DNA from: a virus
Lineage: Duplodnaviria; Heunggongvirae; Uroviricota; Caudoviricetes
Length of the DNA: 64,000 nucleotides
Direction: 5' to 3' (one strand)
IMG/VR virus record: IMGVR_UViG_3300017655_000275
Made by a program: the position numbers and the translations under genes. Each line of letters opens with the position of its first letter. Positions within the stretch are counted from its first letter, which is position 1. Below the pieces are notes generated by a model that was given only the letters and a program-made list of their open reading frames with translations, had not been told where the DNA came from and did no database searches. Shown here piece by piece: positions 2,482 to 31,570 of this stretch.

Positions 2482-2555
2482 TGGCCACCGCGACCTGAAA
2501 GACCATATGCATTTCCAATGCGGCCGGAAACCAACCTAAAACTGTGGATCCCGGG

Positions 2556-2585
2556 TTGATATGTCATGCGAAAAAATAGTATGGT
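2556..2585 (+). promoter_or_regulatory. Candidate sigma70 promoter of cas operon
   Basis: TTGATA-N18-TATGGT upstream of cas8f; spacer contains the ATGCGAAAA motif. Confidence 0.5.
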
Positions 2586-2618
2586 AAGCCGGATAGCAAT
2601 AAGGACTTCATTTCCTTC

Positions 2619-3719
2619 ATGTCTGAACCGGCAGCCGGCAGGATGCGGCGGCTCGTGTTGGGTTGTAATGATCCAGGGCAGCCCTATCCTGTGACGGAGA
2701 TCCTCAGGGTCTTCTCCGATCGAAAAATCGCCGCCGGGCAGGCGGATAATACAGAGTCCTTCGCCGCTGTGGCGCGGAATTCCGGCACCCATAACATGAA
2801 GGCCCTTGCGCCTAGGGCCAAGGATTACGTGATCCGGGCCACCGCAGCAGGAAATGCGCATCAAAGGCGTTGGTTACCTTTCGGGAATGGCCATCTGGCG
2901 AAGTATGCGAAAATAATCTTCATGCCGATCGCCATCGATGGTGCCGGACCGGCGCGTTCGCTTGTCGATCACGTCCTGGAACCGGACGAATGGTCCGATC
3001 TCGTCTTTGCCTCCTTCATCAACGCGTTCAGTCTTGAAAGCCTTTTGGCCATTCAGGATGGCCTTTCTGAACGCAGGAAGTTCGTGAGCGATATCAGGGA
3101 TCCCGGCATCCCTGTCACATTCATTCCCGGTCCGGACGGAGCCGACCTTCAGGTCACTCCGGTCAGCCCTATGGCCATGTTCAACGAATTCGCCGAGGAG
3201 CTGAAGACCGCGGATCGTCGTATTCCGGTCTGTTATCAGATGGTCTCGACGAAGCCACTCAACATCTCTGTCGCATTCGGCGGCATGAGAAAAAAATTCC
3301 ATGCGAAATTTCCGGAAAGGTTGAGCCCGCGATATGCGGCGGCCTGGAAGATCGTAAAGGGTGGGCATTTTCCCCCGCTTGACGATGAACAGGTCAGGCA
3401 GTTGATCGTGACATTTGCAGAGATGTATGCGCGCGAGCGTCTCGCCGCTTCCGGTGAAGCCTTCGTCAACGCACGGATGCGGATCGGGCTCGACCGGCTC
3501 GGCCATTGGATCATCGACCTTCTTCACGATCATCTGGAGGAAATCCGGGAGACGGTCCTGGAAGTCGATCCCCAATGCGAGCCGCGCTGTCAGGATCCGG
3601 TCGCGCTCCTCTGTAATGGGTATTGGGCCGACAAGGATCAGCGCGACAGGGTCCGGCAGGCATTGCGTTCCGCACGCTTCACATCCCTGCTCGAAAGGCG
3701 GGAATTGCCATGCGCGTGA
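2619..3719 (+). CDS. cas8f: Type I-F Cas8f (Csy1)-like large subunit, divergent
   Basis: GTHNMKALAPRAK resembles Csy1 THxxKxxHPxA; LQVTPVSP segment; first gene of a csy2-csy3-csy4 run. Confidence 0.6.
   Translation: MSEPAAGRMRRLVLGCNDPGQPYPVTEILRVFSDRKIAAGQADNTESFAAVARNSGTHNMKALAPRAKDYVIRATAAGNAHQRRWLPFGNGHLAKYAKIIFMPIAIDGAGPARSLVDHVLEPDEWSDLVFASFINAFSLESLLAIQDGLSERRKFVSDIRDPGIPVTFIPGPDGADLQVTPVSPMAMFNEFAEELKTADRRIPVCYQMVSTKPLNISVAFGGMRKKFHAKFPERLSPRYAAAWKIVKGGHFPPLDDEQVRQLIVTFAEMYARERLAASGEAFVNARMRIGLDRLGHWIIDLLHDHLEEIRETVLEVDPQCEPRCQDPVALLCNGYWADKDQRDRVRQALRSARFTSLLERRELPCA
2731..2745 (+). repeat. Third copy of the CRISPR-repeat hairpin core CCGCCGGGCAGGCGG, inside cas8f
   Basis: Exact 15-bp match to cores at 9392-9406 and 9455-9469. 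Confidence 0.8.
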
Positions 3720-4540
3720 TGATTTCAAACCTGATCGCCTATGATGTGAACCTGTCGCAGAACGATATGGTGGGAGGAATGCCGGCGATTTCGGCCTTCC
3801 TGGGTTTGGGATCAGTGCTTCTGCACGATGCCGGGTTCGACCGCTGGGAAGTCCGTGTTCTTCCCGTCATTCATGATTTGCAGAGAACGATGGGCCGCAC
3901 CAGGCCGGAATTGAGGATGGCCGACAAGACAGTGTCCGAGGGCTGGATGCTTGAGGATATGCCCGGCACCGTAAGGTTTTCGCTGATCCTGGACCTGCCG
4001 GGGCCCTGCGAGATCGACGACCTCATCATGTCACTCGAGGGAAGGCGCCTTGCGGGAGGCGTCATTTTCCCGGACCGGGTGGAAACGGGCCTGAAGGTGG
4101 CGGTCATATCGAAAGATGGAAAGGGCCTTCGCGGGCTTCGTCGCGGCAGGGCAGTCATCCCGGTGCCCAATTCGCCCGTGACCTTTGGTGACCCGGGCAC
4201 GATCCTGCCGGTCGGAATTGCCTATAGCCCGGCAGATCCGGAACCCGGACGACCGTGCAGCGATTTTCCGTCCTTTCCAGGTTTCATGGTCCCATGTGCG
4301 ATCGGTTATCGTTTCCTCAGCCGACCGGGCGAGGTGCCCAAAATGAAGGGCTTGCGAAAACCGGATATCCCACATGCTTTCGTGGAGCCGGGGGCCGGAA
4401 TTGCCGAACTCCTGTCGGTTCGAAATCCGCGCCTGACGGGGGCAAGCGAGACATGTCTCGATGAACTGTTCTGGCGTTGGTGCACAGGCCACGACCATGT
4501 CACGTTTCATCCGGCCTACAATCCAGATCACAAGGAGTGA
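3710..4540 (+). CDS. cas5f: Type I-F Cas5f (Csy2)
   Basis: GMPAISAFLG, RLAGGVI, PCAIGYRFL, HAFVEP motifs typical of Csy2; overlaps cas8f stop. Confidence 0.8.
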   Translation: MRVMISNLIAYDVNLSQNDMVGGMPAISAFLGLGSVLLHDAGFDRWEVRVLPVIHDLQRTMGRTRPELRMADKTVSEGWMLEDMPGTVRFSLILDLPGPCEIDDLIMSLEGRRLAGGVIFPDRVETGLKVAVISKDGKGLRGLRRGRAVIPVPNSPVTFGDPGTILPVGIAYSPADPEPGRPCSDFPSFPGFMVPCAIGYRFLSRPGEVPKMKGLRKPDIPHAFVEPGAGIAELLSVRNPRLTGASETCLDELFWRWCTGHDHVTFHPAYNPDHKE

Positions 4541-4544
4541 CCCA

Positions 4545-5675
4545 TTGATTCCGGTGAATTTCGAAGCTGGGCTTCGGTCGGCGAAGCATGGTTTCATGCG
4601 TTCGGTCCAGGCCTCATATGCCAGAATGTATGCAAGCTTGCCAGGCGGATACCGCAAACCGATTTCCGTCGATACCATCGGGATTTCCGGGGTGATCACC
4701 AATGCTCCGGGCGTGAAGGGGAAAGACGTCAAGGAAGGCCGGAACAGCCGTCAGCTTGTCGATCGGGCGATTATCCCGTTCGGGGCGATCGGACTCGAGA
4801 TCGAGTTTCACCTCCGCTTCATGCCGATGAGCTGGACACCGACCTTCTGCGATGATCCGGATGTGGATGACAACTACCGCAGTCTTGTGGACGCCTATAT
4901 CTCGAAAGGCGGATATCGCAATATTGCCCTGCTCTATGCCAACAACATCCTCAATGGCCGCTTCGCATGGCGGAACAGGCAAATGACCGACCGGGCGCAG
5001 ATCATCATATCCTTCGACGGGGTGATGATCTTCAGCGTCGATCCGCTCAAACTGAAACTCAGCCGCATGCATGGTATCGATGATCTGAAATCGGCCGTCA
5101 TCACCGGCAACCCCGATCGGATCGATGACTTCCTGGACCTGATCTCCCGTGGGCTTTCCGAAGCACCGACAAGCATTACGGTTACCTGGCGTTCAAGCAT
5201 GTTCGAAGGGGAAGAGGTGTTCCCATCGCAGAGGCTGCCGGCGAGCGACATGGAGGATCGTTTCAAGAACAAGGACGTCTTTGCAAACAGCCGACCCTAT
5301 ATGTCGGAAAGATGCTTCCACGAAGGTTTTCCGGTCAAACAGGCCGTCATGACAGCCCACAAGATCACAAACGCGATCCACACGATCGACCACTGGCACG
5401 GAAGCCACAGGCATGGTCCTATCTATGTCAGCGCCTATGGCGGAGTTCAGCGAACCAATGAGGCCTTGCGTGGCAGGGAGGCGCCGGCGCGCAGTTTCTT
5501 CGAGATCCGGGATGACCTTTCTTCCCTGATTGCCGATTTAGGCAGGGAGTGCGATGAAATGTCCGGAGATACCCATTTCTTCTTTGCATGTATCGCCAGA
5601 GGCGGCGTCTACTCGCAGGCGAAAACGACGGCCGCGGAAATGAAAGCTACCGAACGGGAGTTGGCCGATGCGTGA
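4545..5675 (+). CDS. cas7f: Type I-F Cas7f (Csy3); probable TTG start behind AAGGAG
   Basis: YANNILNGRFAWRNR, EVFPSQ, KITNAIHTIDHW, HFFFACIARGGVY match Csy3 motifs. Confidence 0.9.
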   Translation: MIPVNFEAGLRSAKHGFMRSVQASYARMYASLPGGYRKPISVDTIGISGVITNAPGVKGKDVKEGRNSRQLVDRAIIPFGAIGLEIEFHLRFMPMSWTPTFCDDPDVDDNYRSLVDAYISKGGYRNIALLYANNILNGRFAWRNRQMTDRAQIIISFDGVMIFSVDPLKLKLSRMHGIDDLKSAVITGNPDRIDDFLDLISRGLSEAPTSITVTWRSSMFEGEEVFPSQRLPASDMEDRFKNKDVFANSRPYMSERCFHEGFPVKQAVMTAHKITNAIHTIDHWHGSHRHGPIYVSAYGGVQRTNEALRGREAPARSFFEIRDDLSSLIADLGRECDEMSGDTHFFFACIARGGVYSQAKTTAAEMKATERELADA

Positions 5676-6339
5676 TCATGTGAATGAACATGGGGGGATA
5701 GGACTGAGCGCAGGCAAGGGAACCTGTCCTCTGGAATCCATGCTCGTGGTGGACATGGATGCGCAATCGCTTGAGATGGGCTTGGGGAAAACACTTCTCA
5801 AGGTGATCTTCAACGCCGCGCACCGGATAAACCGCCACAGCAGGACCGATGATTTTGTCGCCCTGCAGCTTCCCGATCTCGGAAGCCGTGCAGGCGTGAA
5901 GGGTATCGACACGGCTGGTTCGAGAGTATGTCTGTTCGGCAGACGATCCACTCTGGACAAGGTGATCCAGGATCTGGATTTCCTGCGCTTCGAGAAACGG
6001 CAGAGCCTGGAGTTCACCTTCGGGAAGATCCCTGCGGATTGCCAGGCTCGTGCCCTGGTTCGCAATAGGGCATGCGAAAAATTCTCCCCCGGAAGAGCCA
6101 AACGAGATGCGGCCCGTCGGGAACGCAGACAGGCCCATATTACAGCGACCTCCGGGCAGTATTCGGACAACAGGAAAGCCAGACCGCAACGGGATTTCCA
6201 TATCCAGCTCGACTCCGGTGTCTGCCTGGACATCCTCGCGGTGGATGGAGGCCCCTTGGCCACCGAAGTCTCGGTTTCCACCTATGGGTTATCGTCCGCA
6301 GCCGAGCCGCAATTCCTGCCTCTCGTCCCGTCGCTGTGA
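5668..6339 (+). CDS. cas6f: Type I-F Cas6f (Csy4) crRNA-processing RNase
   Basis: N-terminal His (NAAH), VALQLPDL, C-terminal STYGLS...FLP; position after cas7f. Confidence 0.75.
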   Translation: MRDHVNEHGGIGLSAGKGTCPLESMLVVDMDAQSLEMGLGKTLLKVIFNAAHRINRHSRTDDFVALQLPDLGSRAGVKGIDTAGSRVCLFGRRSTLDKVIQDLDFLRFEKRQSLEFTFGKIPADCQARALVRNRACEKFSPGRAKRDAARRERRQAHITATSGQYSDNRKARPQRDFHIQLDSGVCLDILAVDGGPLATEVSVSTYGLSSAAEPQFLPLVPSL

Positions 6340-6344
6340 GCACC

Positions 6345-9287
6345 ATGAACGATCGCCTTCATGCCCTGCTTGCCTCGATCCGTGTCGCTGCACTGTTTCA
6401 TGACCTTGGGAAAGCCACCAGGGTTTTCCAGGAAAAGCTCCGTCTTGCCATAGCTGGAGGGCGGGCAGCACCCGACCCTGTCCGACATGAGCTCCTGTCG
6501 GCCCTGATCTGGGACCAGCTTTGCGAGCGCAGGAGCGAGGCGGAAATCCTGGTCATGCTGCGCCGTATCAAGCCTGCCGATATTGACAGGGCATACGGAA
6601 AGGCAGTGCGCTCCGCGATCGAAATCCAGATGAAGGCGCGCAAGCTGCGCATGACCAATGTCTCGATTGACTTCAAATTCAATGCCAATGGCGGCCTGTC
6701 CCAGGCTGTCGGACTATTGATCCTGAACCATCACCATTTGCCCGGGCTGAGTGAAACCGGGCTGCGTTTCACCGCGGAAAACCACATCGCGTTGCAGGAC
6801 GTCTTCCGCTCTGGCGACCTCGATCACCACAATGCTCCGCGCTGCTGGCATGAAGACCGATGGATCTCGGGATTGCGCAAGCAGGCATCGATCCTGGAGG
6901 TGAACTCTGTCGATCCACTGATGGTGGATCTGTTCGGTCGAACGGTTCTCATGATGGCCGATCATCTCGCCTCGGCCAGGAAGGTGCCGTCAGATGGCCA
7001 TGGCCTGCTGGCCAATACCTTCATCACTGATGATGGTGATTGTCTTCCCGCGGACAGCCTGATCACCCATACCATGAAGGTGACCAATCATGTTACCGGA
7101 GCGTTCTCCGCGCTCATGGGAAGCCGTAATTGCTACCCCTCCATCCTGCAGGAAGACCTGCCCTCGAGCGTGATGCCAGAGGCAGATGAGACGGCCGGTC
7201 GTTTTCGGTGGCAGGGCAGGGCAGCAGAAGCTGCGAGAAGGATTGCATCTGAGGGGGGCGGTTTCTTTGCCTGCGTCATGGCCGGGACCGGCGCCGGAAA
7301 GACCAGGGCTGCGCCCAGCATCCTGGCCGCAGCGGCCGCCGGCGAGCCAGACCGGAACCGGAGACACCTGCGGTTCACCTTGGCTCTGGGCCTGCGGACA
7401 CTGGCCACGCAATCCGGAAAGGAATATCTCCGCGATCTCGGCTTCATGAACCATGACGTCGCGATCATGGTTGGCCAGCCGCCGATCGAGTTCCGGAGCC
7501 CTGCGCAGGAGGGGATGAAAGATCTGGACGGCATCGAACTCCTCGATGCCTATGGCAACCACCTTGTCGATGATCCCAGCCGGATCGTTCCGGGGTTCAT
7601 CCGTTCCATGGCGAGATCGGGCGGTCTGTCACGGGGCAGGAAACTCATGAGCCTTGCTGCGGCGCCGGTGATCTGCGCGACGATCGATCATCTGATCGCC
7701 GCAGCATCGCCGCTCGGCTCGAACCATCTCGCGGCATCCCTGCGTGTCATGACATCCGATCTGATCATCGATGAAGTCGACCAGTTCGGCTCCGAGGATT
7801 TTTCCGTCGTTGCGCGGCTTGTCAATCTTGCCGGACACTCCGGCAGGAAAGTCATGGTCATGTCCGCAACGATAACCCGGCAGATGGCCTGTGTCCTTGC
7901 TGAAAGCTATAGCCGCGGGTGGGCCGAACATGCGCGGCTGTTCAACGCACAGCGCCATGTGAACTACCTCTGCACCTCGGATGCTGATCAGGTGGAGGCA
8001 TGCCTGACAACGAGGGTGGATGGGGGATTCCGGTCGATATTCGAGACGGTGAGCTCGGCTACGATCGAAGCCCTTTCGAAGGCGCCGGCCTGCCGGAGCG
8101 CTGAGATCCTCCCGTTGGAGTCTCATGTCGATGTTCCGGCCGTCGTCGGCGATTGCATCTCCAGGATGCATGACCGTCACGCCTCCGACATCGAGGGCTA
8201 CAGGGTCAGTTTCGGATTTGTCCGCCTGACGAGGGTCAGCCATACGGCTGAGCTCGCTCGTGTCCTGCCGATGGATGTGGAGGGAAGGCTCCGGCTCGTT
8301 CTCTGCCTTCACTCCAGGTTTCCACGACTTCACCGATCCTGGATCGAGGACCAGCTGCGCGGATCCCTGACAAGGAAAGGAGCCGATCCGCATGCCGGGC
8401 TAGCAGCCTTCTGCAGGGATCACGAGGTTTTTGATCGCGCCGATGCCCGCTCGACAAGGGAGATCGAACTGGTTCTGATCTGCTCTCCTGTGATCGAGAC
8501 CGGGAACGATCTGGATTTCGACTATGCCATCCTTGATCCATCGAGCACCAGATCCATCATTCAGTCCAGCGGGCGGGTCGTCAGACACCGGATGATTTCA
8601 GTCCACGAACCCAACATCGCGATCCTCGGTCGCCCCCTGGTCAGCTTCGACAAGGGAAGAGTAGAGATGCCGGGCGTAGAGACCGACAATCCGGAAGCGA
8701 CGAGGGTTTCCCGGCTCGACCTTGCCGAGTTCGGCATCGCCAAGCCCCTGAGCCGGGAGCTGTTCGACGGCCCGGATCTTTCGAAGATCGATGCATCCTG
8801 GATCCTGGACCGGATGGTCACTTGTCCGCTTCTTGCGGCAGAGATGGATCACGTCGGCCGCTTCCTGTGCGGCGATGAGGCAGGCCTCGATAACTGGATG
8901 GTCGATATCCTGCGCCGCAACAGTTCAAGGCAGGCAATGATGCGCCGCTTCCGCCGATCAATTTCGGAAAATGTCACCGTCCTCATCGCAGATGATGAAG
9001 CTGGCCGGCCAACATGGATGGTCGATCGGAATCCTCTCTCGGTGGAAAAACTCCTGGAGCCCGCCACCCTGGAGGTCGAGGAGGAGCCTCGCCATCTGAT
9101 CGTCCCGGATATCGCAGGGCGCGCCTGGACGGACAGGCATGGCAAGGATGCGGAGGTCACGCCGGAAAGATTGCGTGAGGCGAGCGAGATTGGCTGGCCG
9201 ATCTATTTCGGTTCGGAAACCGGCAAGATGATCTATTCAGAGGCGCTCGGACTCCGGCGAGAGAACAGCAGAGGAATCTTTTCCTAA
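6345..9287 (+). CDS. cas3: Cas3 HD nuclease-SF2 helicase, type I-F-like, without N-terminal Cas2 domain
   Basis: LFHDLGKA 16 aa from start, NHHH, ADHLAS, Walker A AGTGAGKT, DEVD, MSAT, IIQSSGRVVRHR. Confidence 0.93.
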   Translation: MNDRLHALLASIRVAALFHDLGKATRVFQEKLRLAIAGGRAAPDPVRHELLSALIWDQLCERRSEAEILVMLRRIKPADIDRAYGKAVRSAIEIQMKARKLRMTNVSIDFKFNANGGLSQAVGLLILNHHHLPGLSETGLRFTAENHIALQDVFRSGDLDHHNAPRCWHEDRWISGLRKQASILEVNSVDPLMVDLFGRTVLMMADHLASARKVPSDGHGLLANTFITDDGDCLPADSLITHTMKVTNHVTGAFSALMGSRNCYPSILQEDLPSSVMPEADETAGRFRWQGRAAEAARRIASEGGGFFACVMAGTGAGKTRAAPSILAAAAAGEPDRNRRHLRFTLALGLRTLATQSGKEYLRDLGFMNHDVAIMVGQPPIEFRSPAQEGMKDLDGIELLDAYGNHLVDDPSRIVPGFIRSMARSGGLSRGRKLMSLAAAPVICATIDHLIAAASPLGSNHLAASLRVMTSDLIIDEVDQFGSEDFSVVARLVNLAGHSGRKVMVMSATITRQMACVLAESYSRGWAEHARLFNAQRHVNYLCTSDADQVEACLTTRVDGGFRSIFETVSSATIEALSKAPACRSAEILPLESHVDVPAVVGDCISRMHDRHASDIEGYRVSFGFVRLTRVSHTAELARVLPMDVEGRLRLVLCLHSRFPRLHRSWIEDQLRGSLTRKGADPHAGLAAFCRDHEVFDRADARSTREIELVLICSPVIETGNDLDFDYAILDPSSTRSIIQSSGRVVRHRMISVHEPNIAILGRPLVSFDKGRVEMPGVETDNPEATRVSRLDLAEFGIAKPLSRELFDGPDLSKIDASWILDRMVTCPLLAAEMDHVGRFLCGDEAGLDNWMVDILRRNSSRQAMMRRFRRSISENVTVLIADDEAGRPTWMVDRNPLSVEKLLEPATLEVEEEPRHLIVPDIAGRAWTDRHGKDAEVTPERLREASEIGWPIYFGSETGKMIYSEALGLRRENSRGIFS

Positions 9288-9346
9288 GCGTTGTGGCGTT
9301 GCTCCTCACCTGGAAAGTGGGGCGGTTCCAAGCGCAATAAAATCCG

Positions 9347-9375
9347 TTGCGAAACATTTTCTCATGATATAAAAT
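9347..9375 (+). promoter_or_regulatory. sigma70 promoter of the mini-array
   Basis: TTGCGA(9347-52)-N17-TAAAAT(9370-75); predicted +1 near 9382, just before repeat 1. Confidence 0.7.
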
Positions 9376-9386
9376 ATTGATGTCGG

Positions 9387-9477
9387 AAGATCCGCCGGGC
9401 AGGCGGCTGAAAGATGTTTTCTCCCGACGCAGTCGCTTATCAGCGATTTCATACCCGCCGGGCAGGCGGATCTTCAA
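9387..9477 (+). CRISPR. Degenerate one-spacer type I-F-like mini-array (repeat-spacer-repeat)
   Basis: Two CCGCC-GGGCA-GGCGG hairpins (5-bp stem, 5-nt loop, as in I-F repeats) 63 bp apart; repeat 1 is followed by handle-like CTGAAAGA; adjacent to cas3. Confidence 0.7.
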
Positions 9478-10282
9478 TACGGGCTGTGGAACAGGAACGT
9501 CTCGCAGCCCGTATTTCGTCGCGATTTTTCCCATGCATCGACCGGTTCGTCACCAGCGTCCTGGTGACGTCCAGATCTCCGGTCTCGATCCGCCGCCACT
9601 CCTCCGTCACGCGTTCAATTTTTCTGGAAAACCAAACCGGATCCTTCTCGATGGTCACGGCCCTGCGTCCCGTCCGCATGGCCGCGATCGCCGTTGTGCC
9701 GGACCCGCAGAATGGATCCAGGACCAGATCGCCAGGTTGGGAACTGTTCAGTATATATTCCATGAAGAGCTCGACCGGCTTTGCCGTCGGGTGCCAGTCT
9801 ATGTCCGGCCTTGAATGGAAGGCCGATTGCTTGGACCCGGGGAAATTGATGGTTCTTGCTTTCCCCTTGAAGAGATAGACCGTGTATTCGGTATCCTTCA
9901 TATACCAGCGGTTCCTGGTTGCGGTCTCTTTCCGCCAGGTCAGCAGGTTGTGAAGCCGAAATCCTGCCGCCGTGAATGCGGCATGGGCATTGAAGACCTC
10001 CTTGTCATTGGCCATGATATAGGCGTCCGCCCGATCCTTGCAGGCATCGAACATCGGGCCGGCCATCTCATCCCATCGAAGAAGGCGCATCAGCTTGCCG
10101 GAATTGTCATACCGGTCAGAAGAGAATTTTCCCTTCATGTGATCACCCTTCCGGCCGCCGGATGTCAGCTTGTAGGGCGGATCGCTCACCAGGAGATCCG
10201 CCATCCCCTTCAGGTCTGGAAGAACATCCCGGGAGTCGCCGAGTATGAGCCGGCATGGGCCAATCTGGACTTCCTTGCGCAC
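9449..10282 (-). CDS. Beta-class N6-adenine/N4-cytosine DNA methyltransferase, orphan
   Basis: SDPPY, then HPTAKP and LDPFCGSGTT; probable GTG start at 10282 behind GGGGGAAGG (ORF open to 10348). Confidence 0.9.
   Translation of the reverse strand: MRKEVQIGPCRLILGDSRDVLPDLKGMADLLVSDPPYKLTSGGRKGDHMKGKFSSDRYDNSGKLMRLLRWDEMAGPMFDACKDRADAYIMANDKEVFNAHAAFTAAGFRLHNLLTWRKETATRNRWYMKDTEYTVYLFKGKARTINFPGSKQSAFHSRPDIDWHPTAKPVELFMEYILNSSQPGDLVLDPFCGSGTTAIAAMRTGRRAVTIEKDPVWFSRKIERVTEEWRRIETGDLDVTRTLVTNRSMHGKNRDEIRAARRSCSTARIEDPPARRV
9476..9515 (+). terminator. Hairpin closing the mini-array transcript
   Basis: Perfect 11-bp stem AATACGGGCTG/CAGCCCGTATT directly after repeat 2. Confidence 0.55.
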
Positions 10283-10421
10283 GAACCTTCCCCCTGCATC
10301 GTCAGGGAGAAGGTAATCCGGCTTGCACCATAGCGAATAAATTCGCATTGGAATTATTCTGGTATCATGTGGATAACCAGGATGGCGGCCGATCGGTCAA
10401 CACGACCAGGCAGATGCGGCA

Positions 10422-11267
10422 TCAGGCGGTGAAAATTTCCTGTGCCAGACCACGTCCGTGCGCCTTAACGATCTTCCATGCCTTCGCAACCGTCCGGTGC
10501 TCACAGGAATCCAGCATCCAGCACCATTGGCTCACCTGACGGAGATATTTCTCAGAGCTGGAGGGCATGGTTTCGAATGCCTCTTCCAGTCCTTCGGCAC
10601 CTGGCCACAGAATGTCCATGAAGCCAGGGACAGAAAGTGCAAGACCGAGACCTGCAGGATCGAAGTCCGGAAAGACGACGACCCGCGGCTTGCAAGCGCG
10701 CAGGAATTCCTGACATGCACTTTCCGGAATCGTTGGGTCGCCCCTGTAGACGATGATGAACGTCCTGTAGCATGCAGGGATATCGAATGAGAGCCGGTCG
10801 AACCTCTCGAAGCTTTCCCAGTTCTCAACAGTGATCACCCCCTCTATTTCATAGGATGCAAGCTCCGATGGAAGCATCGATGCCCAGGTATTGCCGGGAA
10901 GCGTCAGCTTTCCAGCAGTCCCTTCAAGGGCCTGTCCGGTCTGCAAGCGAAATGCGACCCGCGGCTCACGGACGCGGGTTCGGGTCATTTTCTCATTGGA
11001 TATCCGGAGAGACAGGAAGCCTCGGCTTGAGTCGATTGGAATTGGCTTGTCTCCGATCTCATCGATCGTCCGCCGGCTCGCTTTGTTCATTTGCTCGACC
11101 AGGTTCTGGAGCCTGTCGCAGTCATCGGGCGACAGGTGGATTTTCTTGCCGGCCCGGGCCGGGATATCCGCCTGTCGCAACAACCTGGCCAACGGCTCGC
11201 CGCATTTGCCGACAAATCCCTGCTTCAGCGCCTTTGCTGCCTGGTTCAAAGCTGTGATCTGGTTCAT
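10422..11267 (-). CDS. jetD: Wadjet JetD/MksG-like TOPRIM nuclease
   Basis: ITVENWESF, IVYRGD, FPDFDPAGL (TOPRIM E and DxD); ATGA overlap with upstream gene. Confidence 0.75.
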   Translation of the reverse strand: MNQITALNQAAKALKQGFVGKCGEPLARLLRQADIPARAGKKIHLSPDDCDRLQNLVEQMNKASRRTIDEIGDKPIPIDSSRGFLSLRISNEKMTRTRVREPRVAFRLQTGQALEGTAGKLTLPGNTWASMLPSELASYEIEGVITVENWESFERFDRLSFDIPACYRTFIIVYRGDPTIPESACQEFLRACKPRVVVFPDFDPAGLGLALSVPGFMDILWPGAEGLEEAFETMPSSSEKYLRQVSQWCWMLDSCEHRTVAKAWKIVKAHGRGLAQEIFTA

Positions 11268-12442
11268 GCCGCCCTCCTGACTTCGATATCGCTCACCATG
11301 CTGGTGAACACCTGATCCAGCGGAGGCTGGAACGTGCAGTCGAAATGATCCGGCGAGGCCAGGACGTTCTGCAACACCAACTCGAATGCGACGTCCTTGT
11401 CCTCGCCATGTTCGAATGTCTCCAGCCATCTCCGGACGGAGAATTTCTCATTCCCGACATCCTTCCCGAACCTGTCGAGGATGATTTCAGCCGTGCTTTT
11501 GGGCAGATCCATGTGCCTTTCATCGAAGGGGACAGGGGTCAGGGCCTTGAGTGCCTTGCCCTTCGCGCGTTGCGGTTCCTTCGGTTGCATAGTTGCCGCA
11601 TGCCGGATCCTCGCGATCTCGAGTTCCTGATCGTTGGGATCGGTGATGACTCCGAAAGAAAATCTGGGAAGAATCGGAAAGAGTTCCGGATGCGCAAGAA
11701 CCGCTTCGACCATTTCAGTATGCGAAATCTCCCGCAACGCACGGCCGATCAGGCGCAGACGCCGTGTCCGCTCCATGATCTCGGTGTTTCTGGCCAGCAG
11801 GACCCGCAATTTCCCGATTACGGCGGTGAGACGGGCGCTGAGATGCGGGATGTAACGAGAAATCATCCGGTCATATTCGCGACGGACTTCGCGACAGCCG
11901 GACTCTGCCAGGTGATCGCGCAATGCGTGATCCTGAAGTTGCGAGATGCTTTCGTTCAAAGCGTTCGCACGATCGAAATAGAAGCGATTTCGGCGCAATC
12001 GCTGGTCGAGCGTGCGTGCTTCCTGAAAACCTGTGTGCAGATGCATCTCGAATTGCGCGAGTTGCATATCGAGGGCATCTCTGATCGACCAGATCAGGCC
12101 GTGAGCCTCCTCGATATGGTCGAGCCGGTCCTGTTCGTCCCCATCGCCGAAATCTGCCGAAATTTCTATCAGGAGCATGCGCAATGCGCCAAGATCCTCG
12201 ACAATTCCGGCCGCTGAGCCAAGCGCGCCACGGCGACCGACAGAACGATCCAGCATGTCGCGGCATGTCCGGCTGAGCCTGAACTTTCCTTCATCATCAC
12301 CGATGACGACCTGAATCGACCGGAGCTCTGCAAAAGCCCGCATGGTCGACTGATCGGCATAGACATGCCCTTCACGGTGGATCCTGTCGAGCAGATCACC
12401 ATATTTTGCGCCGATGCTGAAGAATTTCGCAACATCAATCAT
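11264..12442 (-). CDS. jetA: Wadjet JetA/MksF-like kleisin subunit
   Basis: Helical 392-aa protein with N-terminal wHTH-like FRLS segment; assigned mainly from operon position. Confidence 0.55.
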   Translation of the reverse strand: MIDVAKFFSIGAKYGDLLDRIHREGHVYADQSTMRAFAELRSIQVVIGDDEGKFRLSRTCRDMLDRSVGRRGALGSAAGIVEDLGALRMLLIEISADFGDGDEQDRLDHIEEAHGLIWSIRDALDMQLAQFEMHLHTGFQEARTLDQRLRRNRFYFDRANALNESISQLQDHALRDHLAESGCREVRREYDRMISRYIPHLSARLTAVIGKLRVLLARNTEIMERTRRLRLIGRALREISHTEMVEAVLAHPELFPILPRFSFGVITDPNDQELEIARIRHAATMQPKEPQRAKGKALKALTPVPFDERHMDLPKSTAEIILDRFGKDVGNEKFSVRRWLETFEHGEDKDVAFELVLQNVLASPDHFDCTFQPPLDQVFTSMVSDIEVRRAA

Positions 12443-13068
12443 GAGAACAGGTCTCCCTGGATCTCGGTCTCGATTTCGCCGACGCGCTCGGTCAACCTGG
12501 GAATGTGGGCAAGGAACTGTTCGAGATTATCGAAAGCATAGTCCACCTTGCCGCTGACCACGTATTCTTCCCGGGCGGCGTTCAGCTCCACCAGATAGCC
12601 GTCATCCGCAAATTTCCGGAGAACCCGGCTTGCGGCTTGTGCATGGGTATCAGGTCGAAGGCCGAAACTGTCGGCCAGGAGCATGAGCTTTTCACCCAGC
12701 GAGGAGTGATCCTCGATTGCGGCAACAATCCTGCCCGCGGAGATGACGAGCCCCATTTCAAGGGGCGGCGATGCCTTGTCGACATCCTGCCAGAACTCCG
12801 AAAATGCCAGAATTCTGTTTGTCCCTTCTACGATGTCACGGGCTTCGCTGCGCAGAAGGACTTCACCTTCACGCTGCGAGGCCGGTGTCGCAAAGAACGT
12901 GCGCTTGCTCGAGGTTACGCCCAGCCTCAGGCCGATGCGGCTGAGGGTGACCTCGAGCATGTCGCCACGATCGGGATCCGTGAGATAACCATGAAGATCT
13001 CCGGCCGAATAGCGGCAGATCGTCTGTTTCGACAGAAGTGCCTGGAGAGTGCGTGCCAGAATGTCCAT
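12439..13068 (-). CDS. jetB: Wadjet JetB/MksE-like KITE subunit
   Basis: 209 aa, tandem wHTH-like pattern (LRKFADDGYL...YVVSGKVDY); coupled to the SMC gene. Confidence 0.65.
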   Translation of the reverse strand: MDILARTLQALLSKQTICRYSAGDLHGYLTDPDRGDMLEVTLSRIGLRLGVTSSKRTFFATPASQREGEVLLRSEARDIVEGTNRILAFSEFWQDVDKASPPLEMGLVISAGRIVAAIEDHSSLGEKLMLLADSFGLRPDTHAQAASRVLRKFADDGYLVELNAAREEYVVSGKVDYAFDNLEQFLAHIPRLTERVGEIETEIQGDLFS

Positions 13069-16000
13069 CAGTTCACCTCCGGATAGACGAGTTCACCGGT
13101 ATCAGTCCACTCACGGACGGCGCGGCGCATGATGCCGCTATTGTCGGACCGCAGAATCTGCGCGCCATTCTTGTCGGGACGAGCCGTAATGCTCAGCCGG
13201 TTCTGGAACGCCTTCATGACTTCGATATCCATATTGGGGGCGCCGGTTACCAGGCGGATGCCATTATCCCCCAGCATCCTGACGAGATTGGTCCCGTTGT
13301 TGCGGTCCAGCCGGCCGAATTCATCGACACACCAGGTGAAGATGACATTGCTGCCCGATCTCATGATGGTGATCGCCGCGGTAAGAATGATCAGACGGAT
13401 GATGCTCGATCCGCCTTCCGATGACAGGTCCTCGATCTTGGTATCGCGGCTCATGCGCCAGGTCTGACGACCCTCGGTCACAGTTCCTTCGAGATACATC
13501 ATCTCGCGGATGTTGATCGTCGGCGCGCCACCATCGCTCCAATGCTCGAACAGCATGGCCATGGCGTCGACCAGTTCGTCCGGCGCCGAAGTTGCGATCT
13601 CCCTTTCCCAGAGCCCGAAGAGTTCATCGAAGCGTTGGAGATCGGCCCAGAAAGGCTGTGCTGAAATCCTCGACCGGACATGCAGGTCGATGTCGGTGAT
13701 GCCGGGAAAACGGACATTGGACCGGATGGCATCACGCAGGCGGCGGTTCAGCGTGGAAATCTCTCGATCCGCATCGCTCAGGTCAATGTAGAACTTCCTG
13801 ATAGGATGGCACATCGCGCGGAGCTCCAGTCGGAGCCCCTCACTGACCTCGACATGCCGTTCGTTATACCAGGATGCGAAGATGGGGAGCCACTTCAGGC
13901 TTGCGGCGGCGCTTCCCGATTTCGCCATTCCGTCCTGCATGAAGTCATGGATCACGCCACGCTTCTGGAGAAAGCGGCTCTGCAGGGCACCGAGGTCGTC
14001 GATGATCGTTCGGGTGAGCGATTTCCGCTGGACGTCGAGAGACCTGATCGACGTGATGATGGCTTCAGGCGTTTCGATCACCTGCTCATCTGCCTGGGCT
14101 TCCACGCGATATCCGAAACTCTTGCCGTTCTCGATTTCCTTGACGCAGGTCTCATGGGCCCGAGCGGTGGCTGCGATCCGTTTCACGAGCTTTTCGATCT
14201 TGGCTTCATGCGCTGCAACCGCCGCCTTGAATGTCGCCTTGCGATCGGCGAGGCGATCCTCATCCATGCGGATCTGCTGTTCAGCAGCTGAAATGCGGGC
14301 GGGCAGGGAATCGAGCTTCGGCTTTTGCTTGCCGAGGAACCAGTTCCATTCCGCAAGCATCTCCGACAGCGCCTCGTTGGCGGAGATGCGGCCGGCCAGT
14401 TCGTCACGTTCCGCCGAGAGGCTTCTGATGCGCTCCGGGTCCGCGCCTTTTTCCGAAAGAGCCGCGGCCAGATCGGTCTTGTTCCGTGCAATGTCCTTCC
14501 GGAAGTTCTCGCGAACAGACTGGCGTTGCGCCTCGATGCTTTCCTGCTCCATCCGGAACGCAGCGTTTGCCTCCGTCATTCGGACCGCAAGCCCATCCAT
14601 CAGAGACTTGATCCTGGTCTTCAGGTCGGCCTCATGAATCCGCGCGTTCTCATGGTGTCGCTGAAGCTCACGGCTTGCCTCGGCCATCCTGGCATCGACA
14701 TCCTTCCTGCGGTTGGCAACACTCTCCTGAACGGCCTCTTCCGCAAGCTGAAGTTCTTCGCGACGGCGATCGCGAGACTGGGTGGCGAGTTGGAGCTCCG
14801 TTTCCAGCCTGGTTTGTTCCTTGCTGGAGTTCCGATACAGCGCCGCAGCTTTTTCCAGCGCCTTGCGGTCGGTGGAAACCATGGCTTTTGCCGCTTTGAC
14901 CGCTTCATGAGCGGATTCAACGGCGGCTTCCAGCTTTTCCCGGTCGGCAAATTCCGGCAGGTCGATCTTCTCGATATCGATAGCTACGCCGTAGATGCTC
15001 TGGCCATCGGCCAGGCGCGGGGAGAGATCGCGACGACGCAGGAGTTCAGGATGAACCAGCCGGCCGATCGAGGTCCCCCAATCCGGGTGGTTCTTCGAAA
15101 GCCAGGCATGGAAGCTTCCATCTTCGGGGCTCAGACGCTGAACCAGTCTTGCATGACGGGCGACAGCCTCCACCTCATTAGCCTGCGATTTCAGGACTTC
15201 CCGCTCGATCTCCGAGAGGGCGTCCTTCGCCTTTCCGGTTTCAACTCGCGATTTTTCACACGAGGCGGCAGCGGTGCGCAGGGTTGCGTCTGCAGCGATC
15301 AATGCTGTTTTGGCGCGTTCCTGTGCAAGAATGACATCGGAATCCGCGGTAATGGCCAAGGCTTCCCGCGACAGGGCGTCACGCAACTGGTCGACCTTGA
15401 CGATTTCGGCATTGATCTCAGAGGATCGGATTTCTGCCTGCTCCCGGGCATGGGCCTCAGCCGCCGCGGCTTCTGCGCGAGTGCCGTCAGCGATTTTTCG
15501 CAGCCTTTCCTCATTGATGGAATTGGCCTCGGCCAGTTCCGCCTCCCGCTTGTGAAATGCGTCTTTCAGCCGGTCCGAGTTGCGCTCGAAAGCATTGACG
15601 ATGCTTTTGCCATTGCCATTGAGCGCTTCGAGTGTCGCTTCGGTTCGTGCCAGGGCGCTCCGCAATGAGGGAAGCTCGGATTTGGCCTGCTGGGCCTTGT
15701 CCGCGCCTTTCGAAAGAAGAATACGCTCTTGTTCCCTCAGATCCGAGATCTCCCCGTTCATGGAAAGGAGGCCACCCTCGGTTTTGCCGATCCGTTCGCT
15801 GATGATCGCGATTTCGGTTTCGGATGCGGATTTGCTGTCCTTCCAGGCATCCGTCGTCTTCGACTTCTCATCTTCAAGGTCAATCAGTTCTCGCGCAAGA
15901 CGCAGCTCCGCCCCCGCCAGGCGGTCGTATTCCGAGGCGATGCCATCCTCTACGACCGTGAGGTTCACCGCCTTCTTCTCGGTTTCCCGAAATGACGGTT

Positions 16001-16802
16001 CGTGTTCCATGACCGATCGGTAGGCCCGGAACTGTTCAGGATACTCCCTGCGCGTCTTCGATTTCGCATCAACGAGATGAATAATGCCCTTCTTGCCGGC
16101 ATCATCGTCTGAATCGATGATCTGGCGGGCAAGAATCCCCAGGAGGTCGTTGATCGAGAAGCTGTTCTGGAGCGTGGTGATCGCCAGGCGATCGATCCCA
16201 ATCAAAGGGTTCTTCAGGCTCCCAAGACCGAATTCGGCAATCATGCCTTGCAGGAAGGACCTGTCCTTGGGGGAGTCCGTATCGATGAACCCCTGGATGA
16301 TTCCGCGATACTCTCGGTTGACCTCGATCAGACGCTCGGCCGGCTGATAGCCCAGTCGCCGCGCATGACGTTCAAAATCCTGAGCACGGACCCACTCGCG
16401 TTCTCCATCTTCGTTTTCGCGAAGGAACAGCTCCGCAGAAAGACCCGATCGCAGGAACCGATACTGGACCTCCGTGCGGGATGGGTTGGAATGCATGACC
16501 ACAGATCGCACATCGCCGCGGGCATTACGATATTCGAATGCGATATAGGATTCCTCGCGCGGCAAGTAGAAGTTGATGAAGTTCAGTCGCTCCCGACTGG
16601 AGACGATCTGGCTCTTCCTGGCGCCCAGAAAGAACGGCGTCAGGCTCATCAGCGAGGTCTTTCCTGCCTGGTTATGGGCAATGAGCGCCGTGTGCTCGTC
16701 GAGGGGGAGTTCCTCGATCCGCCCTTCCATGAGCGTGAAGTTGACCACAAGCATGCGGATGAGGCCCGGCATGACGCGCGCGCCCGTCTCGATATCAGTC
16801 AT
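13068..16802 (-). CDS. jetC: SMC-like ATPase JetC/MksB (DUF3584-like)
   Basis: N-terminal Walker A AHNQAGKT, long coiled coil, signature LSSEGG, Walker B WCVDEFGRLD. Confidence 0.85.
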   Translation of the reverse strand: MTDIETGARVMPGLIRMLVVNFTLMEGRIEELPLDEHTALIAHNQAGKTSLMSLTPFFLGARKSQIVSSRERLNFINFYLPREESYIAFEYRNARGDVRSVVMHSNPSRTEVQYRFLRSGLSAELFLRENEDGEREWVRAQDFERHARRLGYQPAERLIEVNREYRGIIQGFIDTDSPKDRSFLQGMIAEFGLGSLKNPLIGIDRLAITTLQNSFSINDLLGILARQIIDSDDDAGKKGIIHLVDAKSKTRREYPEQFRAYRSVMEHEPSFRETEKKAVNLTVVEDGIASEYDRLAGAELRLARELIDLEDEKSKTTDAWKDSKSASETEIAIISERIGKTEGGLLSMNGEISDLREQERILLSKGADKAQQAKSELPSLRSALARTEATLEALNGNGKSIVNAFERNSDRLKDAFHKREAELAEANSINEERLRKIADGTRAEAAAAEAHAREQAEIRSSEINAEIVKVDQLRDALSREALAITADSDVILAQERAKTALIAADATLRTAAASCEKSRVETGKAKDALSEIEREVLKSQANEVEAVARHARLVQRLSPEDGSFHAWLSKNHPDWGTSIGRLVHPELLRRRDLSPRLADGQSIYGVAIDIEKIDLPEFADREKLEAAVESAHEAVKAAKAMVSTDRKALEKAAALYRNSSKEQTRLETELQLATQSRDRRREELQLAEEAVQESVANRRKDVDARMAEASRELQRHHENARIHEADLKTRIKSLMDGLAVRMTEANAAFRMEQESIEAQRQSVRENFRKDIARNKTDLAAALSEKGADPERIRSLSAERDELAGRISANEALSEMLAEWNWFLGKQKPKLDSLPARISAAEQQIRMDEDRLADRKATFKAAVAAHEAKIEKLVKRIAATARAHETCVKEIENGKSFGYRVEAQADEQVIETPEAIITSIRSLDVQRKSLTRTIIDDLGALQSRFLQKRGVIHDFMQDGMAKSGSAAASLKWLPIFASWYNERHVEVSEGLRLELRAMCHPIRKFYIDLSDADREISTLNRRLRDAIRSNVRFPGITDIDLHVRSRISAQPFWADLQRFDELFGLWEREIATSAPDELVDAMAMLFEHWSDGGAPTINIREMMYLEGTVTEGRQTWRMSRDTKIEDLSSEGGSSIIRLIILTAAITIMRSGSNVIFTWCVDEFGRLDRNNGTNLVRMLGDNGIRLVTGAPNMDIEVMKAFQNRLSITARPDKNGAQILRSDNSGIMRRAVREWTDTGELVYPEVN

Positions 16803-29428: not shown

Positions 29429-31570
<2,142 letters not shown>

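Follow-up and report, generated by a model that had tools for sequence, protein, structure and literature searches.

CRISPR systems encoded by huge phages nearly all lack Cas1 and Cas2 and carry compact arrays (Al-Shayeb et al. 2020, PMC7162821). The locus analysed here, which lies in a 64,000-nt stretch of DNA from an IMG/VR virus record (hereafter the window), shares with the compact arrays of huge phages and other large elements (PMC7162821; PMC11656645) the absence of Cas1 and Cas2, intact effectors, an array that is very short and adjoins the cas genes, and residence on a very large accessory replicon. It differs from them in having a single spacer, where the median reported for theirs is six repeats, in being a type I-F system with a Cas2-free Cas3 on a phage or plasmid, and in that its spacer has no match in the collections searched, whereas several of theirs match rival phages or host genes.

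A second group of described relatives in form are the regulatory crRNA-like RNAs of type I-F systems, whose partial target, flanked by CC, lies close by in the promoter of a cas or toxin gene (10.64898/2026.06.02.729485; PMC10120712). The CreA1/CreA2 RNAs of P. aeruginosa (10.64898/2026.06.02.729485) and an I-F1 mini-array by which the Cascade promoter is repressed (PMC10120712) resemble the unit described here in consisting of two repeat-like units and one spacer of odd length, with the 5' handle preserved in the first unit and just the palindrome in the second. They differ from it in lying between cas2-3 and csy1 beside a normal array, whereas the present unit stands in the array position, and in having spacers of 20 or 26 nt with a nearby CC-flanked partial target, of which there is none in the window. 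[quoted passage not shown]

Compared with the canonical arrays of its own clade (L092/L093, L099, L013, L006 and L001), the unit shares the hairpin (base for base with some of them), the strand and a similar leader of about 100 nt behind cas3, but those arrays hold roughly 10-80 spacers of 32 nt against one of 35 nt here, and the window lacks the 3' handle part of repeat 2, cas1 and the Cas2 domain. We conclude that the locus is a true CRISPR array with one spacer, belonging to an I-F variant without adaptation genes, a kind of system already known, and put at about 0.55 the probability of the reading in which the neighbouring I-F system's own array has collapsed to one unit and yields a fixed interference guide.

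The element is a very large accessory replicon, with contigs of 199-230 kb carrying these same cas genes; the sole other copies of the locus are 100% identical, so that they offer no variation by which selection on the spacer could be judged. A PHROGs search with ten proteins of the window matched only a ligase and an ATPase, and PLSDB held no near-identical DNA for positions 2500-10400 and 20000-44000. The coordinates of the features discussed below are collected in Table 1.

Table 1. Features of the cas operon and the one-spacer array, in coordinates of the window.
Feature	Position	Strand	Remarks
cas8f, 366 aa	2619..3719	+	PADLOC Cas8f, E 1.3e-71; aligns from Met1 with the Cas8f of relatives
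Third exact copy of the repeat hairpin	2731..2745	+	Covers codons 38-43 of cas8f
cas5f, 276 aa (length from the gene call on L007, an identical contig)	3710..4540	+	Pfam Cas_Csy2, PADLOC Cas5f
cas7f, 376 aa	4545..5675	+	Pfam Cas_Csy3, E 1e-42, whole profile; relatives 33-40% identical
cas6f, 223 aa, predicted processing nuclease	5668..6339	+	Pfam Cas_Csy4, E 3e-8; PADLOC Cas6f, E 4e-8
cas3, 980 aa, HD nuclease and helicase, without Cas2 domain	6345..9287	+	PADLOC Cas3f, E 1e-106
Leader between cas3 and array	9288..9386	+	99 nt, from the cas3 stop to repeat 1; same place as, and similar length to, leaders in 18 relatives
Promoter-like site TTGCGA-17-TAAAAT	9347..9375	+	Overlaps TGCGAAAC, which differs at one position from the element-wide motif TGCGAAAA
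Repeat 1	9387..9414	+	Hairpin 9392-9406 and 8-nt 5' handle CTGAAAGA at 9407-9414
Predicted mature crRNA, 63 nt	9407..9469	+	Handle, spacer and 20-nt 3' hairpin part; inferred from type I-F Cas6f cleavage
Spacer, 35 nt	9415..9449	+	
N6/N4 DNA methylase ORF, convergent	9449..10348	-	Its 3' end (29 codons and the stop) runs across the stem-loop and repeat 2
Repeat 2, terminal	9450..9477	+	Hairpin 9455-9469 intact; 3' handle part degenerate (ATCTTCAA)
Strong stem-loop, terminator-like	9476..9515	+	Inverted repeat, fold z -3.9

The cas genes fill positions 2619-9287 in the order cas8f-cas5f-cas7f-cas6f-cas3, and all effector genes as well as cas3 are full length, with matches to their families. Cas6f has the invariant His52, the Arg-rich helix and the YGLS motif common to relatives in the clade, and Cas3 keeps the motifs HDLGK, GTGAGKTR, DEVDQ, MSAT and QSSGRVxRHR; the PADLOC Cas3f profile is matched from position 109 only, and the protein aligns with the Cas2/3 of the closest relative, L006, from residue 113 of the latter. 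Among 5.8 billion proteins no relative of Cas7f exceeded 40% identity; no relative of Cas3 exceeded 48%, and IMG/VR held no close relative of the Cas7f of the window. The relatives that were found belong to an alphaproteobacterial I-F clade that includes Paracoccus, Cereibacter, Roseovarius, Aurantimonas and Hyphomicrobium, and in which the gene order is (WYL)-cas8f-cas5f-cas7f-cas6f-cas1-cas2/3-array, with cas1 and the Cas2 domain standing between cas6f and the Cas3 part. When proteins of these relatives served as tblastn queries (Cas1, Cas2 domain, WYL regulator), no match was obtained in 69.5 kb, that is, the window and 5.4 kb upstream of it. On our reading, the system descends from this cas8f-cas5f-cas7f-cas6f-cas1-cas2/3-array clade and has lost cas1 and the Cas2 domain, with the consequence that new spacers can no longer be acquired.

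Further members of the clade without cas1, and with Cas2-free Cas3 proteins, are L099 (Cereibacter sphaeroides), L100 and L101. The first has large arrays on both sides of its cas genes; the second lies in a conjugative backbone, adjoins a TrwB-like coupling protein and has no array within 13.6 kb; and in the third an array starts 187 nt after cas3. Loss of cas1 and of the Cas2 domain has recurred in the clade, with differing states of the array: large, none nearby, or one spacer.

The unit itself lies between the cas3 stop at 9287 and the convergent DNA methylase gene. The preliminary description, made from the letters of the sequence, had seen here a self-contained mini-array with its own promoter, two identical 15-bp hairpins 63 bp apart with divergent flanks, a predicted crRNA of 63 nt and a terminator stem, and this anatomy was borne out. 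The putative promoter TTGCGA-17-TAAAAT is the only sigma-70-like site in 9000-10000 (9/12 matches; 0.3 expected from shuffles). The 15-mer CCGCCGGGCAGGCGG occurs exactly (15/15) at both hairpin positions, with a start-to-start distance of 63 nt, and each copy forms a hairpin of 5 bp closed by a 5-nt loop; in the remainder of the repeats, identity is only at chance level, in 2/5 nt on the 5' side and 2/8 nt on the 3' side. The crRNA length was reproduced, with a spacer of 35 nt. As for the terminator, the inverted repeat of 11 nt (9476-9486 and 9505-9515) is exact and the fold is strong, with an extended stem of 14+2 bp and -24 kcal/mol (z -3.9), but a strict terminator scan did not call it, the loop being long and just three U following directly after the stem.

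Type I-F Cas6f cuts at the 3' base of the repeat stem, and terminal CRISPR repeats often lack the handle part. The handle is present on repeat 1 and lost from repeat 2, which matches exactly the needs of one mature crRNA. At the other end of the unit, the methylase ORF extends about 54 codons beyond its Pfam domain (9449-9537, minus strand), and convergent transcription of the methylase would make RNA antisense to the crRNA.

The promoter-like site overlaps a variant of a motif that is frequent in the window. TGCGAAAA occurs at 25 sites in the window against 2.7 expected, often followed by T (e.g., at 453, 2567, 2906, 4353 and 6073); one copy precedes the start of cas8f by 52 nt and another precedes the ORF at 510 by 57 nt, while others are found inside cas8f, cas5f and cas6f. 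The one-mismatch variant in the mini-array promoter begins at 9348. The motif looks like an element-wide promoter word.

The repeats tie the unit to the clade. Clade repeats have the form NNNNN-CCGCC-NNNNN-GGCGG-CTGAGAGA or -CTTAGAAG, and in all 21 that were compared every stem position pairs (100%), including one compensatory change from a C-G to a U-A pair. The window 15-mer recurs in 23 exact copies in a 25-unit array with the handle CTGAGAGA (L092/L093); hairpin and handle of repeat 1 are identical to those of this array in 22/23 positions (CTGAAAGA against CTGAGAGA); relative to the clade consensus, the handle of repeat 1 is identical in 7/8. The same 15-mer is the hairpin of an array repeat in the Cereibacter locus L099 and of the first repeat after cas2/3 in L009 and L010, while L013 and L023 have the GGGCA loop in common with the window on a CTGCC/GGCAG stem. 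Where a relative has an array behind cas3, the distance from the cas3 stop to the array is always about 80-190 nt; for repeat 1 of the window it is 100 nt. Because both the repeat sequence and the position behind cas3 match, we regard the unit as homologous to the CRISPR arrays of the clade, with which it also agrees in strand. A minus-strand reading was rejected, as loop and handle fit the relatives on the plus (cas) strand only.

The spacer, with its 35 nt, departs from the relatives, nearly all of whose spacers are 32 nt long (60-nt period), although L012 holds many of 37-42 nt. This locus is that of Pseudovibrio flavus, in whose arrays (1091-2406 and 11416-11724) about one third of the units are spaced at 65-70 nt. 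Spacers of 37-42 nt are unusual for type I-F.

At the end of the array of L006 (8844-8974), a worn canonical repeat is followed by two variant repeats that carry the window 15-mer, with spacings of 43 and 59 nt and the loop GGGCA instead of GGATA; the first has the handle CTTAGAGA and the second has none. This array end is either a case of trailer-end decay or a separate mini-array, and the window unit may descend from an L006-like trailer end. Between the window spacer and the trailing spacer of L006 only the first 3 nt and scattered bases are alike, without recognisable homology, and the trailing pseudo-spacer of L006 has no target within its contig, which stops short of the cas8 promoter.

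As in type I-F arrays generally, the unit thus combines a 5-bp stem and 5-nt loop with an 8-nt handle on repeat 1, a repeat homologous to those of related systems, adjacent cas genes and a leader, and its assignment to the Cas3-containing I-F complex, already made in the preliminary description, is upheld by the homologous repeat and the canonical position. No other array or pair of hairpins was found in the 64-kb window or in the 5.4 kb upstream; with the effector and Cas3 genes intact, we read the unit as the only guide of the system, fixed because the acquisition genes are gone. The earlier claim that no other guide is visible is true for the window and the upstream 5.4 kb of a replicon of at least 230 kb. 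The unit would be transcribed from the leader promoter, by read-through from cas3, or both. Cas6f would then cleave at the 3' base of each hairpin and remain bound to the second, repeat 1 providing a Cas6f site and the 8-nt 5' handle and repeat 2 the 3' hairpin, so that the lost handle would be immaterial in the last repeat. The 63-nt crRNA would assemble with Cas8f, Cas5f and Cas7f into Cascade, and this would direct the intact Cas3 nuclease-helicase to a single fixed DNA target, most likely one foreign to the element, such as a rival mobile element or a host locus. We infer the interference role from the intact Cas3; a protospacer was found in none of the collections searched. Counting against a fixed guide are the spacer length of 35 nt, which is off the 32-nt norm and also off the 6-nt lattice of Cas7f, and the predicted equilibrium fold described below, in which the repeats pair with one another.

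The target was sought at several scales. In the window, no protospacer was found when registers from -3 to +3 were scanned, whether or not a CC PAM was required and with every 6th base ignored: the best CC-flanked seed is 8 nt long, which is at chance level, and none lies in a promoter, while the best match to the spacer overall (13/14, at 31259 in the ligase gene) has a CA flank, is in the wrong register and is expected about 0.5 times by chance. The same scan of the 5.4 kb upstream, taken from L007, returned nothing, and the promoter regions (of cas8f, of the operon upstream, in the leader and in the region after the array) contain no exact match to the spacer longer than 7 nt and no seed match with a CC PAM. 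Searches of PLSDB and INPHARED with the 35-mer gave best E-values of 0.1-4, none convincing; exact scans of IMG/VR with the spacer halves, with N at every 6th base and with and without PAM, gave 0 matches, as did 401 genomes of Paracoccaceae, the family of Paracoccus sp. ME4, at up to 3 mismatches. The idea of an anti-cas guide was dropped, as the spacer produced only chance-level seeds against 97 I-F loci (1.6 Mb). In the reverse direction, none of the spacers of relatives (493 and 77) targets the window; the closest match has an exact core of 17 nt, 20/32 identical positions overall and a TA flank, and is not a protospacer. Rfam recognised no family in 9000-9800. Most natural spacers have no known match, and the absent target is thus weak evidence on function.

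Two structural features of the RNA had also been proposed. The hairpin within the spacer turned out to be within chance (z -1.6; 19 of 200 shuffles fold equally well), and the pairing of TCTCCCGAC with the upstream GTCGGAAGA does exist, in 8/9 positions, but has no comparative support. A further complementarity links the flanks of the repeats, with GAAGAT 5' of repeat 1 complementary to ATCTTC 3' of repeat 2, as a result of which the minimum-energy fold pairs repeat 1 with repeat 2 instead of forming two local Cas6f hairpins. Canonical units of relatives fold in this way too, but the advantage over two local hairpins is 2.3-3.6 kcal/mol in them and 6.9 kcal/mol here. The duplex between the repeats would normally lose out to co-transcriptional folding and to Cas6f binding, but the pairing could modulate crRNA processing.

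The copy of the hairpin within cas8f extends over 17 nt (2731-2747) that are the same as in repeat 2, including the following AT; it is in sense orientation, codes for IAAGQAD and folds as the same hairpin as the array repeats. The cas8f of L008 has 12/15 of the hairpin bases at the same codons (GCC GCC GGC AAG CCG), and relatives are without this hairpin. About three substitutions would thus have been enough to create it. A feedback of Cas6f on the cas8f mRNA through the hairpin is possible. That the system is a self-contained, autoregulated weapon or switch, armed with Cas3 and with a single atypical guide of 35 nt aimed at a host or rival locus, in which such a Cas6f hairpin on the cas8f mRNA couples Cascade production to processing capacity, seems to us a rather improbable elaboration.

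Among the three roles offered in the preliminary description, namely a regulator, a fixed guide against competitors and a Cascade decoy, the fixed guide fits best. A regulatory crRNA-like guide of the CreR/CreA/Cracr type would act by partial, PAM-proximal pairing with a promoter and repress it without Cas3, and its target would lie beyond the window, e.g., in a host defence gene or in a gene elsewhere on the element. The anatomy of the unit is that of the described I-F crRNA-like RNAs, with palindromes kept in degenerate repeats, a handle on the first, the palindrome alone on the second and a spacer of odd length; such guides are known on mobile elements (10.1101/2024.10.29.618823), and the collections searched yielded no full protospacer. 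The promoter site that the proposal calls for failed to appear: neither the cas promoter nor the rest of the window has a PAM-flanked, seed-matching site, and nothing rises above chance there or in the 5.4 kb upstream. Neither was a CreTA toxin gene found: with the end of cas3 and the unit's own promoter on one side and the methylase ORF on the other, there is no room for a small toxin gene beside it; by inspection, no Shine-Dalgarno sequence or start codon precedes the stem-loop at 9476-9515 on the plus strand. Moreover, the described guides accompany a normal array instead of taking its place, their pseudo-spacers are shorter than 35 nt, and repression needs no intact Cas3. A regulator role of the CreR/CreA type is possible but unsupported, and we hold it to be on the unlikely side. 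The proposal of a decoy for Cas6f or Cascade, or of a feedback element, in which the hairpins, including the copy in cas8f, titrate or recruit Cas6f to tune the system, draws on that third exact copy and on the extra flank complementarity that favours a duplex between the repeats. The copy in cas8f is absent from relatives, however, and is in part explained by descent, given the 12/15 match in L008, and pairing between repeats is generic for palindromic repeats. RNA anti-CRISPRs of the Racr kind (PMC10651486) are solitary repeats without cognate cas genes, on elements attacking the host system; the present locus has the full guide format, with two repeats and a spacer beside a full cas operon. 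There is no evidence for such a role, which sits oddly with a proper 5' handle and cognate cas genes on the same element, and we judge it very unlikely.

The collapsed array that we favour could also be a functionless relic, the final remnant of an array whose decay followed the loss of the adaptation genes, transcribed or silent, without a current target and not under selection. The odd length of the spacer, the worn terminal repeat, the absence of a found target and the methylase ORF running into the unit are all compatible with this, and the end of the L006 array, with its two variant repeats at an irregular spacing of 43/59 nt, resembles trailer-end decay. On the other side, five intact cas genes over 6.7 kb make little sense without a guide, both hairpins are perfect although their flanks are at chance level, the handle is one base off the clade consensus, and a promoter-like site is present; a relic is in our view improbable. 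An origin outside CRISPR, as a REP-like palindrome or a pair of terminators, would find some appeal in the site between the convergent cas3 and methylase genes and in the GC-rich stem, but is scarcely credible: the preliminary description had named many copies as the mark of a generic REP-like repeat, and the 64-kb window has only three, with no more in the 5.4 kb upstream, while the loop is identical to that of bona fide repeats in related I-F systems and the handle matches in seven of eight positions.

On either side of the locus, the window carries other genes of note. Directly upstream of cas8f and co-oriented with it are two genes of 461 and 181 aa (510-1895 and 1936-2481), without matches in Pfam, PHROGs or PADLOC, in the place that the divergent WYL regulator has in relatives. 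Beyond the methylase, four overlapping genes on the minus strand (10422-16802) encode proteins of 1244 aa (DUF3584), 209 aa, 392 aa and 335 aa (DUF7281); they resemble a Wadjet/Mks-type SMC operon in unusual order, and no PADLOC model matched them.

Systems without adaptation genes reveal the use that a mobile element makes of CRISPR, because every guide that is kept must pay its way. A Cas3-containing I-F system with one guide is about the cleanest natural case of this, one RNA and one target, and the target, if found in the source metagenome or in the host, would tell directly whether the system is used against rivals, against the host, or in regulation. The clade as a whole, with its recurrent loss of cas1 and the Cas2 domain and its varied array states, is useful for following how arrays decay after acquisition has stopped.
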